Source: Escherichia coli (GTDB taxonomy: Bacteria > Pseudomonadota > Gammaproteobacteria > Enterobacterales > Enterobacteriaceae). Taken from it: a stretch of 64,000 nucleotides of DNA. Positions 54,935 through 60,879 of the stretch are shown here, piece after piece (position 1 is the first letter of the stretch; each line of letters starts with the position of its first letter). The position numbers and the translations under genes were made by a program. Location: assembly GCF_003334335.1 (NCBI RefSeq), contig NZ_QOWQ01000003.1. One strand, 5' to 3'. The notes beneath the pieces were generated by a model that saw nothing but the letters and a program-made list of their open reading frames with translations, was not told where the DNA came from and made no database searches.

Positions 54935-55747
54935 TCAGCACTCAACAAACTGATGCTGTTCATTAAGACGATAGCGGACTCCGGCTCGAATATTGTTTTC
55001 ACCTTCAATGGCGACGGCGAAGCGAACTCTTTCGCCGTCATGATATGCCAGTGCGGCGCTTCCTCCTGGCCCGAGAATAATTGAGTCGACCACGCCCGTG
55101 CTCACTACCGTTGAATTTTCACCGCTGGCAATGATGTGTACATTGTCGCCGCTGTTGGCAATTCTGGCGTTTGCGCCAAAGCTGGCGATTTGCACCAGGT
55201 CACCATTACTGGCGACATGACACCGTTCACCCAATGTACAAACGCGTACTCGCATTCCGGTATTCGCAATCCGACTGCTATCTCCAGCGCTGCTTATCCG
55301 CGAAGAATTACCGGTTACAGCAACCCGTGCGCGTTCACCGGAGCTGCCAATGTGACTGTTAAAGCCGACACTTCCAATCCGCACGCTATAACCCATACTG
55401 GCAATTTGCGCGGCATACCCAGCGGTTGCGATTCTGGCGTTATCCTCACAACAGCCGATGCGAGCATGATCGTCGCTGCGGGCAAACTGACTGCAAAATG
55501 GTCTCTCTCCGGGGTCTGTGGCCAGTTTTTGCATAGAGGAAACTTCCTGATGCGCGAAGTTTTCATCCGCCAGCCATTTTTTCCACGCATACTCAACCAG
55601 ACTCTCCGCCCAGTCCGTATATCCTTCCTCAATCAGTGCATGATGAATATCGGCATAACTACCGCCGCGTGGGAAATGGCGCAGGAACCAGCGATACATC
55701 ACCGCTCCGATACGCCATTCTCGCAGGTCTGCTTGTGTAATGATCAT
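54935..55747 (-). CDS. ydhT: Protein YdhT, 270 aa, last gene of ydhYVWXUT; contains a regular 9-residue repeat
   Basis: Track ORF 270 aa; operon position; about 16 consecutive 9-aa units with a hydrophobic-I/V-x-S/T-x-G pattern. Confidence 0.9.
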   Translation of the reverse strand: MIITQADLREWRIGAVMYRWFLRHFPRGGSYADIHHALIEEGYTDWAESLVEYAWKKWLADENFAHQEVSSMQKLATDPGERPFCSQFARSDDHARIGCCEDNARIATAGYAAQIASMGYSVRIGSVGFNSHIGSSGERARVAVTGNSSRISSAGDSSRIANTGMRVRVCTLGERCHVASNGDLVQIASFGANARIANSGDNVHIIASGENSTVVSTGVVDSIILGPGGSAALAYHDGERVRFAVAIEGENNIRAGVRYRLNEQHQFVEC

Positions 55748-55750
55748 TCG

Positions 55751-56536
55751 TTAGTGCCGGTGATAGCCATCGACCATGCTTTTAAAGGTTTCGTGTGGCG
55801 TACGCCCCGTGGTGCAAAGATAAAGATGACCGAAGATAAAAAAGAGGCTTATAAATGCCAGAGCAAAATGTGTCTGCAATAACCAGTATCTTACGCCAGG
55901 AAACACATCTCCCACGGCTTGCGGATAGAGACACAGCAGCCCCGTCAATAGTAACAACGGCAGCAATCCATACATGACACCAACATAGGCGACCTGCTGT
56001 AAGGGATTAAATTTAGACTGGGTTGTTGCCGGGAAAGGATGTTCTTCCCCCTGCATAATGCCAAACAAATAAAATCGCGTTTGTTTTGCCGCTCGTTCCA
56101 GCCACCCCTGACGACGAATGCGATAGTGGTGACCATTATCCCCAACGGCATTGATCAGCACAAAGCCGAGCCAGCATGCCAGTAACAAAAATCCGCAAAC
56201 TTCATGCACCGCAACCAGACTTTTAACCGCAGTTGCGCCCACCATCGCAAAGTGATTTATCAGCCCACTGGCCAGCAACAATACAAAGAGTAACGCATTC
56301 GACCAGTGCCATAATCTGACCGCTTTGCTGTAAAGATAAATCTTCTCACCATGATCGGTGGCTGATTTCTTCACGCCACGAGCACGAAGCAAGGCATGCA
56401 GCCCCAGCACCAACCACATCCCAACCAGCAATACTCCGGCAATGATCAACCACACCGGCCAAAATTCGGGAGTGAACTGTGGCACATAGTTCGCTAACTG
56501 GCTCTGAAACTGTTCAGCATGTTGCGACGGGTTCAT
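55751..56536 (-). CDS. ydhU: PhsC/NrfD-like membrane anchor subunit YdhU, 261 aa
   Basis: Track ORF 261 aa, polytopic membrane protein; overlaps ydhX by 4 nt. Confidence 0.9.
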   Translation of the reverse strand: MNPSQHAEQFQSQLANYVPQFTPEFWPVWLIIAGVLLVGMWLVLGLHALLRARGVKKSATDHGEKIYLYSKAVRLWHWSNALLFVLLLASGLINHFAMVGATAVKSLVAVHEVCGFLLLACWLGFVLINAVGDNGHHYRIRRQGWLERAAKQTRFYLFGIMQGEEHPFPATTQSKFNPLQQVAYVGVMYGLLPLLLLTGLLCLYPQAVGDVFPGVRYWLLQTHFALAFISLFFIFGHLYLCTTGRTPHETFKSMVDGYHRH

Positions 56537-57201
56537 ACATTTTCCTTTTTAATCAAATGTTGACCGAACCGGCGATACAGATGCGGTTTCCCGGCACCAG
56601 GTAGCTGATATTGATAGTATTTATTTTGCTGCAACCACGCCTGAATTTCTGGGCTATCTTCGCGACCAAAGATCAATGCGTGTTCCGGGCAGGCGCTGAC
56701 GCAAATGGGCGGAAAGCCTTTTGCCAGTCGGGACTCAGCGCAGAAATCACATTTATCTGCCACTTTAGTGACAGGGTTAAGGTAGCGAACCTGGTACGGA
56801 CAAGCGCCAATGCAATAACTGCAGCCGATGCACTGCGATTTTTCTACCCGCACGATCCCCTGCTCATCACGCCACGACGCCCCCGTCGGGCAAACGTCGA
56901 TGCACGGAGCATCTTCGCAGTGCTGACATGACTGGCGAAAAAAGTGATACTGCGTTTCGTTGTCGTTATCGGTGACTGGAATGTGTGCTATCGATAAACG
57001 GCTTCCCTGAGCGGGGACGTGGTTAGTTTTACGGCATGCGCGGGCGCAAATATTACAGCCATTGCACCGTGACTCGTCATGAATCATGGCATACCGAACT
57101 TCCTTTTCTTGCCTCGTGTTCGCTAACAGAGAAGACGCAGAACCAGTAAAAAAGATTACTGTTCCCATCCCCAGAACAAATTTGCGTCGAGTGAAGGACA
57201 T
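56533..57201 (-). CDS. ydhX: Tat-exported 4Fe-4S ferredoxin-type protein YdhX, 222 aa
   Basis: Track ORF 239 aa trimmed to the ATG at 57201 (MSFTRRKFVLGMG..., twin-arginine motif); several CxxCxxCxxxCP clusters. Confidence 0.9.
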   Translation of the reverse strand: MSFTRRKFVLGMGTVIFFTGSASSLLANTRQEKEVRYAMIHDESRCNGCNICARACRKTNHVPAQGSRLSIAHIPVTDNDNETQYHFFRQSCQHCEDAPCIDVCPTGASWRDEQGIVRVEKSQCIGCSYCIGACPYQVRYLNPVTKVADKCDFCAESRLAKGFPPICVSACPEHALIFGREDSPEIQAWLQQNKYYQYQLPGAGKPHLYRRFGQHLIKKENV

Positions 57202-57264
57202 CTGATTATCCCCTAATGCAGTGGCTGCAACTGTCCACCCTATCCATGACATCTCCCTGAAATT

Positions 57265-60018: not shown

Positions 60019-60038
60019 GATTTTTTCCTTTGCAAGAT

Positions 60039-60665
60039 TCACACAGTAATATCTTTCCACTCGATAATTTTTAACGCCCCTGTTGGGCAGGCGTTTGCGC
60101 ATTCACCGCATAACACACATTTCGAGGATTTTTTACTTTCGGTATTTACGGTGGCCATCATCCACGGGCATGCCGTAGTACAGGCGCTACAGCCAATACA
60201 GCGTTTATGATCGACGGTAATACAGCCTTCTTTCTGCTGCCAGGTAATCGCACCAATCGGGCAGACGTTCATGCATTGCGGCTCTTTGCATTGACGGCAG
60301 GTGTCCGCGGTATAGTTGAGATCGCCATACAGGCCGCCGCCAGAGCCAACCCCGTTGTCGCCAAAGAAATAATTGCGATGGATTTTGATACGGGAGAAGA
60401 ATGTCCCTACTGAGCCATCGTTGAAGTTGGTACAAGAGATTTCACAGCGGTGGCAACCCGTGCATCGCGCTCGCTGGGTCACCAGCACCCCTTTGGGGGT
60501 ATTTATCAACCCTACTGTGCCGCTATCAATATCTTCCTGTTTGCAACCCAAAAGTGACAGTAACGCAGGGGCAATTGTTAGACCAGCAAGGCCTTTTCCT
60601 TATATACGCAAGAATTCTAATCGCGTTAAGCCAATATCTAATAGTGGACGATCAACCGGGTTCAT
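60039..60665 (-). pseudogene. ydhY: ydhY (4Fe-4S ferredoxin-like, first gene of ydhYVWXUT) with an in-frame TAA at codon 22
   Basis: ATG at 60665 reads MNPVDRPLLDIGLTRLEFLRI, then TAA (60602-60600), then continues in frame through GKGLAGLTIAPALLSL and the 170-aa track ORF 60039..60551 with its four ferredoxin Cys clusters; 38+170 = 208 codons matches the reference YdhY length I recall. Confidence 0.6.
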
Positions 60666-60865
60666 TTATTTCGCATCCTCTTCGCAAACACAGTGCTGAC
60701 AATTCAGCAGCCTGATATTAAGCATTCAACTAATACGCTGCTGACTCTGTCCCCAACACCAGATATTTTCCCTAACCCGATAGTGTATGAGAAAAGATTA
60801 ACGCCGATAAACTAATCCTTTATGGTTAGGAGAAAAAATAATGTGATTATTCTGAGCCCTTAACA

Positions 60866-60879
60866 TTGATCGTTATCAA
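60866..60879. promoter_or_regulatory. FNR/CRP-family box TTGAT-CGTT-ATCAA upstream of ydhY
   Basis: Perfect match to the FNR consensus TTGAT-N4-ATCAA seen directly, about 200 bp upstream of the ydhY ATG in an AT-rich region. Confidence 0.65.

Follow-up and report, generated by a model that had tools for sequence, protein, structure and literature searches.

What does the ydhYVWXUT operon of Escherichia coli encode, and can the copy found on contig NZ_QOWQ01000003.1 (assembly GCF_003334335.1) still make it? The whole stretch of 64,000 nucleotides (nt) analysed here, referred to as the window, is E. coli DNA near K-12 and in blast comparison collinear with NC_000913.3 (MG1655). At 54935-60665, on the minus strand, six co-directional reading frames follow each other in the order Y-V-W-X-U-T. 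Five of them are open and ydhY, the first, is interrupted by a stop at codon 22. This operon is most probably dead in the strain, a natural loss-of-function allele to judge from its sequence. Our high confidence applies to the explanation as a whole, i.e. a known operon, the model of its intact form developed below and a null allele here.

The premature stop in ydhY

Codon 22 of ydhY is TAA in the window and TCA (Ser22) in MG1655, NEB10-beta and AH21, the change being C>A on the coding strand at window position 60601. Translation of 60665-60039 gives MNPVDRPLLDIGLTRLEFLRI*GKG.... We aligned 25 homologs of YdhY, the most distant of them about 42% identical. R15, F18 and G40 are invariant, C41 is found in 23 of the 25, and G23, K24 and G28 are nearly invariant. 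The arginine motif reads S/T-R-R-x-F-L-K in 13 homologs and T/S-R-(L/Q/K)-x-F-L-R in 12, all enteric ones included. Behind it come a hydrophobic stretch and an L-x-G-C lipobox, of which C41 is the cysteine. The ancestral E. coli protein has T-R-L-E-F-L-R, with a single arginine, and LLGC, and the stop of the window cuts this signal. The 16 cysteines of YdhY form four CxxCxxCxxxC cluster motifs. YdhY is expected to be the carrier of a lipoprotein signal of the twin-arginine translocation (Tat) type for the whole complex, bringing YdhV to the periplasm, and the stop is probably disabling because it falls inside this conserved signal. The possibility that the start of ydhY is annotated too far upstream, which would make the stop harmless, was rejected on the conservation of the N-terminus with its invariant R15 and F18 in homologs down to that identity. 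An earlier note on this DNA had listed ydhY as encoding a ferredoxin. This does not hold, as codon 22 is a stop here and the intact protein is a signal-bearing four-cluster subunit and not a free ferredoxin.

The reading frames of the locus, all on the minus strand, are the following (AOR, aldehyde ferredoxin oxidoreductase; aa, amino acids; PGAP, Prokaryotic Genome Annotation Pipeline).

60039-60665, minus strand: ydhY, four-[4Fe-4S] subunit (WorS), interrupted; ATG at 60665, TAA at 60600-60602, normal stop at 60039-60041
60039-60551, minus strand: residual 170-aa open reading frame (ORF) with a TTG start at Leu39 of YdhY; mature domain without the Tat/lipoprotein signal
57916-60018, minus strand: ydhV, intact, pterin subunit of the AOR/WOR family, 700 aa; AFOR_N and AFOR_C domains, NF007354 at 1372 bits
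57265-57912, minus strand: ydhW, acidic cytoplasmic protein; 215 aa from ATG 57912, or 212 aa from ATG 57903 as in orthologs and PGAP
56533-57201, minus strand: ydhX, NrfC-like four-cluster ferredoxin, 222 aa; MSFTRRKFVLG..., 16 cysteines
55751-56536, minus strand: ydhU (phsC in PGAP), membrane cytochrome b, 261 aa; about five transmembrane segments, 4-nt overlap with ydhX
54935-55747, minus strand: ydhT, 270 aa; N-terminal helical domain, about 15 nine-residue repeats, no signal peptide

As a system the cluster is recognisably the already described ydhYVWXUT operon and nothing new, which agrees with the earlier note. The region is 99.98% identical to K-12 (2 mismatches in 11,001 bp against the K-12 derivative NEB10-beta). 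Against MG1655 there are 5 mismatches in 21.7 kb, and those within the operon are the same two; from 42234 on, adding 1,693,812 to a window position gives that of NC_000913.3. By annotation the gene order is ydhS, ydhT-U-X-W-V-Y, fumD, ynhH and pykF. The proteins match the NCBIfam equivalogs NF007382, NF007354, NF007411, NF011582 and NF007410 above the curated cutoff, YdhX excepted; the search with YdhY was run on the intact sequence from MG1655. Gene order, spacing, promoter and FNR box all equal those of MG1655 (b1674-b1669), whereas the lineage of the window differs by the ydhY Ser22>stop and by YdhV G262S, the only two nucleotide changes in the operon. YdhW, YdhX, YdhU and YdhT are protein-identical to K-12. 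The tight packing claimed before (gaps of 3 to 20 bp and one 4-nt overlap) was found for ydhY-ydhV (20 nt), ydhV-ydhW (3 nt), ydhU-ydhT (3 nt) and the ydhX-ydhU overlap. It fails for ydhW-ydhX, where the gap is 12 nt with the longest ORF and 63 nt with the curated 222-aa start of ydhX (ATG 57201). The curated start is preferred because its Shine-Dalgarno spacing fits (GGGGA about 8 nt upstream of ATG 57201).

Full-length YdhY, read in this frame, cannot be made here. TTG 60551 (Leu39) is the only standard in-frame restart after the stop, and in the 25 nt upstream of it (AATTGCCCCTGCGTTACTGTCACTT) a Shine-Dalgarno-like sequence was not found. An out-of-frame TTG just past the stop was also considered as a restart and discarded, as it meets a TAA three codons on. 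Gene callers do label the 170-aa residual ORF in assemblies with N-terminal ydhY disruptions, and its product would lack the export signal.

It would still be conceivable that the operon functions in this strain, if a suppressor tRNA, readthrough or a re-initiation that yields working YdhY overcame the TAA. The five downstream genes are intact, four of them coding for proteins identical to K-12, a start at the TTG of Leu39 would yield little more or less than the mature domain, and the allele persists across several sampled isolates. However, the TAA is followed by G with no evident recoding signal and the TTG stands without a Shine-Dalgarno sequence. A restart product would be without the Tat motif, with its invariant R15 and F18, and would have lost most of the hydrophobic stretch, and the Sec pathway is closed to cofactor-loaded Fe-S proteins. 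PGAP, too, treats the allele as a pseudogene. We consider a functional operon here very unlikely and keep to the null allele.

Reality and distribution of the stop allele

A rare stop codon in a single contig may be an error of sequencing or assembly, or an artefact of the window, with the real ydhY intact. The 61-mer carrying the stop occurs in only 3 of 5,397 complete E. coli genomes (SCU-308, isolate 58 and 1335KP). Thirteen single-nucleotide polymorphisms (SNPs) of the window are absent from both MG1655 and AH21, and six of the nine coding changes alter a protein. Of the three SNPs tested, two, ydhV G262S and sodB G63V, are in no complete genome, the ydhY stop being in the three named. All this would fit an error. 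On the other side, the same stop is shared by three finished genomes of another lineage, in each of which PGAP annotates ydhY as an "internal stop" pseudogene. Their haplotype is not that of the window: identity is 99.2%, and the first differences on either side of the stop are 113 bp and 189 bp away. Ser22>TAA thus stands on two haplotypes with a tract of at most about 300 bp in common.

The complete genomes closest to the window (AH21, NCTC9104 and others) differ from it at three sites in 21.7 kb, namely ydhQ T263I, ydhV G262S and ydhY S22*. YdhV G262S (GGC>AGC, window position 59235) is lineage-specific and occurs in none of the 5,306 complete genomes that match this region. The G262S protein was looked up by exact sequence, with matches in Logan SRR1815430 (a contig present in 4 samples), in NCBI GCA_012531195.1 and in Logan SRR10357301. 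Stretches of 8,103 bp and 5,994 bp of those assemblies, which come from separately sequenced samples, are 100% identical to the window, with both the TAA and G262S. Because this sequence recurs in independent public assemblies, the TAA allele belongs to a real clonal lineage, and both a sequencing error and an artificial change are ruled out. The error reading is already refuted, unless all runs derive from one flawed reference, and we regard it as extremely improbable.

The 13 SNPs absent from MG1655 and AH21 comprise 4 intergenic, 3 synonymous, 5 missense and 1 nonsense change, and 11 of them fall at G:C pairs. Among them is codon 63 of sodB (window position 41680), where GGC>GTC gives SodB G63V. 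The 61-mer around this site has no exact match in 5,426 complete E. coli genomes, all of which carry the ancestral base.

Public assemblies were also searched with the 170-aa residual ORF, a search that by design finds disruptions of the ydhY N-terminus, and independent ones were found. Two Logan samples have lost 1 bp at nt 70, within an A4 run, and single-base deletions occur in other public assemblies at nt 83 and at nt 114. One copy is doubly frameshifted, with ydhV split as well. In one public assembly (Logan ERR13361745) 113 bp are deleted between ATATCAGG direct repeats and the start codon of ydhY is lost. Part of the disrupted copies come from long-read NCTC assemblies, in which indel errors are possible. 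We read these disruptions as sporadic decay with no evidence of selection. That inactivation in natural E. coli repeatedly strikes the signal-peptide end of ydhY appears doubtful to us, neutral decay or a mutational hotspot being the alternatives to selection. If it were true, by selection against Ydh export in some niches, natural knockouts could point to the phenotype and the substrate. The window has the 8-bp direct repeat ATATCAGG at 60711-60718, in the ydhY 5' untranslated region, and at 60598-60605 (codons 21-23), and the Ser22 nonsense codon sits within this second copy.

Some further features of the window were noted in passing. The rsxC repeat region (14786-15210) aligns in two registers 96 bp apart with both MG1655 and AH21, and repeat copy or arrangement therefore differs from these two genomes. 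Between sodB and ydhP, at 42175-42233, there are an extra 59-73 bp or so, absent from MG1655 and resembling a repetitive extragenic palindrome (REP-like, …GCCGCATCCGACAAGCGCTGCATGATACGACGCCTAACGCGTC…). Rfam places the small RNA STnc550 at 43641-44031 (minus strand, 396 bits) and the antisense RNA family HPnc0260 at 52742-52904 (minus strand). The latter overlaps one of two tandem tRNA genes (52623-52696 and 52704-52777; valV and valW in the MG1655 annotation) and its 3' flank. In AH21, the closest complete genome, uidA (positions 40114-41925 of our locus L009) has an internal stop and is listed as a pseudogene.

Architecture of the intact complex

The assignment of YdhV to the AOR family, made in the earlier note, is well founded. 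Both AFOR_N (PF02730, 1.6e-67) and AFOR_C (PF01314, 9.8e-48) were found, and C307, C310 and C314 of the CxxCxxxC [4Fe-4S] motif are invariant in 21 sequences. Inspection of the YdhV sequence found neither a signal peptide nor a transmembrane segment. In phmmer searches against the PDB, AOR (5.8e-60) was followed by FOR (3.9e-54) and BamB (4.2e-44), with alignments that spanned the N- and C-terminal domains only and left C336 outside. YdhV has this cysteine, as do 15 of 20 clade representatives. A 2025 review (PMC12096430) describes Cys336 of YdhV as an extra metal ligand found otherwise only in the BamB clade, where it corresponds to BamB Cys322, and reports that YdhV and BamB both lack the AOR second-shell residues. 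YdhV belongs to the superfamily of BamB and, according to that review, would share its ligand; BamB differs in being cytoplasmic, tungsten-dependent and part of an electron-bifurcating complex. For YdhV, Reschke 2019 (as summarised in PMC13328260 and PMC9103625) reported a bis-molybdopterin (bis-MPT) cofactor, with molybdenum preferred over tungsten. At residue 262, the site of the G262S change, the 20 clade representatives have Gly (15), Glu (4) or Val (1), preceded by an invariant Trp. The effect of G262S is uncertain.

The other subunits fit a membrane-bound module. YdhX was described before as a ferredoxin with a Tat signal, and we come to the same result: its N-terminus (MSFTRRKFVLGMGTVIFFTGSASSLLA) has TRRKF at residues 4-8, a twin-arginine motif, and a single hydrophobic segment at residues 8-26, and the protein has 16 cysteines. 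The best NCBIfam model is NrfC (TIGR03149, 249.8 bits, under the equivalog cutoff of 377.6), then DsrO and TtrB. YdhU is a predicted PhsC/cytochrome b561-type anchor. It matches Ni_hydr_CYTB (PF01292, 5.6e-31; the other Pfam hits are two chance matches with E>1) and the PhsC model NF011582 with 458.6 bits against a cutoff of 204, besides models for hydrogenase cytochrome b and formate dehydrogenase gamma. Hydropathy gives five segments, with His77, 95, 111, 223 and 237 in or near them. The NrfD family (PF03916) was not found in the Pfam or NCBIfam searches with YdhU. Of the label "PhsC/NrfD-like" in the earlier note only the first half is kept, as it mixes two unrelated families. YdhW has no Pfam-A or PDB sequence match; its model (mean predicted local distance difference test, pLDDT, 81) has two tandem winged-helix modules, and the isoelectric point is 4.55. 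The model of YdhT (pLDDT 91.6) has a helical domain followed by a beta-solenoid of nine-residue repeats, so that the name repeat protein was apt. Attempts to derive a function of YdhW or YdhT from the fold were given up, as the models are confident and the matches generic (tandem winged helix, beta-solenoid).

In its intact form the system would be a periplasm-facing, quinone-linked oxidoreductase, a model that we largely infer. YdhV, with a bis-MPT molybdenum cofactor and one [4Fe-4S] cluster and lacking a signal peptide of its own, would assemble with YdhY in the cytoplasm. Tat would then export the two together by means of the signal on YdhY, and they would stay anchored to the membrane on its periplasmic side. 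YdhX and YdhU would relay electrons between YdhV/YdhY and the quinone pool, and YdhW and YdhT may act as cytoplasmic accessory proteins. In the strain of the window YdhV (G262S) would stay in the cytoplasm because the YdhY signal is lost, cut off from YdhX and YdhU.

We adopted this model for the intact system, and it agrees with the 2026 classification of the tungsten/molybdenum oxidoreductases (WOR; PMC13328260), in which YdhV and YdhY correspond to WorL and WorS of Class V (clade 41). WorS of this class has a Tat signal or a transmembrane segment, from which the periplasmic orientation is inferred there. The partners include a cytochrome-containing membrane subunit, and molybdenum is preferred in hosts without TupABC. 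The intact E. coli operon is the type example, from which the window differs by its truncated WorS gene. Several better known systems show parts of the same design. In hydrogenase-2 (HybOABC) the signal-bearing Fe-S small subunit HybO carries the signal-less HybC through Tat, YdhX resembles the Tat-exported NrfC/HybA-type four-cluster ferredoxin of such modules as nitrite reductase (NrfABCD), and YdhU the membrane quinol-interacting subunit of thiosulfate reductase (PhsABC; 458 bits with the PhsC model). There are differences as well. The catalytic subunit of Ydh is of the AOR/WOR type and not a NiFe hydrogenase, a dimethyl sulfoxide (DMSO)-reductase-family enzyme or a cytochrome c, the anchor is of the cytochrome b561/PhsC type unlike those of NrfD/HybB, and YdhW and YdhT have no counterpart in the Hyb, Phs or Nrf systems. 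E. coli also lacks adjacent phsAB genes, so that no role in thiosulfate reduction follows from the label "thiosulfate reductase cytochrome B subunit" that PGAP gives.

The intact Ydh proteins might on the other hand work in the cytoplasm as an aldehyde:ferredoxin oxidoreductase, YdhY being its soluble ferredoxin, in which case the loss of the signal would be less serious. The PGAP name of YdhV is "aldehyde ferredoxin oxidoreductase", AOR and FOR are its top PDB sequence matches, and the second arginine of the Tat motif is missing from enteric YdhY. Further, YdhV occurs alone in some Coriobacteria and is predicted to be cytoplasmic there (PMC4257093). Against this stand the Tat-like motif and lipobox cysteine conserved over the 25 YdhY homologs, the ferredoxin with an RR signal and the membrane cytochrome b in the same operon, and the placement in the membrane-associated Class V. 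The reviews, moreover, report the Cys336 ligand, the loss of the AOR second-shell residues and no aldehyde activity. A cytoplasmic enzyme is in our opinion quite unlikely, and the exported, membrane-tethered complex is preferred.

Regulation, direction of catalysis and meaning of the allele

The promoter of the intact operon is retained in the window. Its elements are listed with their positions.

60866-60879, minus strand, centre 60872.5: FNR site TTGATAACGATCAA (operon strand), perfect TTGAT-N4-ATCAA
60828-60840, minus strand: candidate core promoter with -10 TATTTT at 60840-60835, from sequence reading and the published -42.5 position of the FNR site
60914-60932, minus strand: Fur-box-like TCAAATGATAATAAATATC, 14/19 match to GATAATGATAATCATTATC, upstream of the FNR site

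The motif TTGAT-N4-ATCAA occurs once in the 64-kb window, as TTGATCGTTATCAA at 60866-60879, with 0.06 occurrences expected by chance; 6 of 100 shuffles contained at least one. The leader (60666-61119) has a GC content of 33% compared with 50% for the operon. Myers et al. 2013 (PMC3688515) found an FNR chromatin immunoprecipitation (ChIP) peak at ydhYVWXUT, with a site at -42.5 and activation by FNR. The perfect FNR box in an AT-rich leader that the earlier note had pointed out coincides with this site. The operon promoter would accordingly be of class II, FNR-activated, with position and activation taken from the literature. As the FNR site lies at -42.5, transcription would start near 60830, giving a 5' untranslated region of about 165 nt. 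A consensus promoter scan did not return the candidate core promoter, as one would expect if it is activator-dependent and has no -35 element. Converted to the window with version offsets that we take to be correct, the published U00096.2 peak falls about 20 bp from the FNR box. The Rfam scan gave no match in operon or leader.

Six sites in the window, counted on both strands, match the Fur box in at least 14 of 19 positions, 60914-60932 being one of them; it sits 34-59 nt upstream of the FNR box. For MG1655 a Fur ChIP-seq peak in the region of this promoter has been published, and for CFT073 control of the operon by Fur (PMC7157518); the peak may belong to this site. FNR and NarL regulation are listed, and a dependence on sigma-S reported, in PMC3141248. 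Our scan for NarL/NarP heptamers found only matches to TACYYMT with one mismatch, at about -76, -1, +5, +14 and +40 from the presumed start. Nitrate and nitrite reportedly repress ydhYVWXUT. Expression would need anaerobiosis, through FNR, and the NarL/NarP, Fur and sigma-S input points to an anaerobic system for nitrate-free conditions. By analogy with other FNR-activated, NarL/NarP-controlled systems we lean slightly towards a terminal reductase for a low-priority acceptor rather than a dehydrogenase. As to the substrate, a June 2026 review assigns neither activity nor physiological role to the enzyme class of YdhV, and PMC9103625 and PMC12096430 likewise assign no substrate to YdhV. The earlier view that the substrate is not firmly established therefore stands, no definitive one having been published in the reviews up to June 2026.

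Several points weigh against the picture of an exported complex that is dead in this strain. The phmmer E-values rank AOR and FOR above BamB, and the BamB relationship was not reproduced by them. Enteric YdhY has R-L and not R-R, so that its Tat dependence can only be presumed. The gene ydhV has its own Shine-Dalgarno sequence (AAGGA, about 8 nt upstream), and for this reason the downstream genes may still be translated; cytoplasmic YdhV could remain partly active if it used a different redox partner. The C/G profile 3' of the stop, taken as a proxy for Rho-dependent polarity, contains a single modest C-rich stretch, which neither supports nor excludes such polarity, and polar effects downstream of the stop are possible. 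Our view covers one window of the genome, and an ochre suppressor elsewhere, low-level readthrough or restart are possible too. The preference for a reductase over a dehydrogenase comes solely from the regulatory pattern, and expression, export and activity of the locus have been deduced from the nucleotide sequence.

Considering that earlier work has described the ydhYVWXUT system, mapped its promoter and covered part of its biochemistry, the sole novelty at this locus is a rare loss-of-function allele, which in another lineage is already annotated as a pseudogene in RefSeq. The operon is one of the few molybdoenzyme systems of E. coli without a substrate, and a defective copy adds nothing to its testability. 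For annotation the allele means that ydhY is a pseudogene in this lineage and that the strain should not be counted as Ydh-positive, and that YdhY in general is to be read as a carrier of a Tat/lipoprotein signal. Natural ydhY-null lineages such as this one could serve as comparators in competition or phenotype screens.

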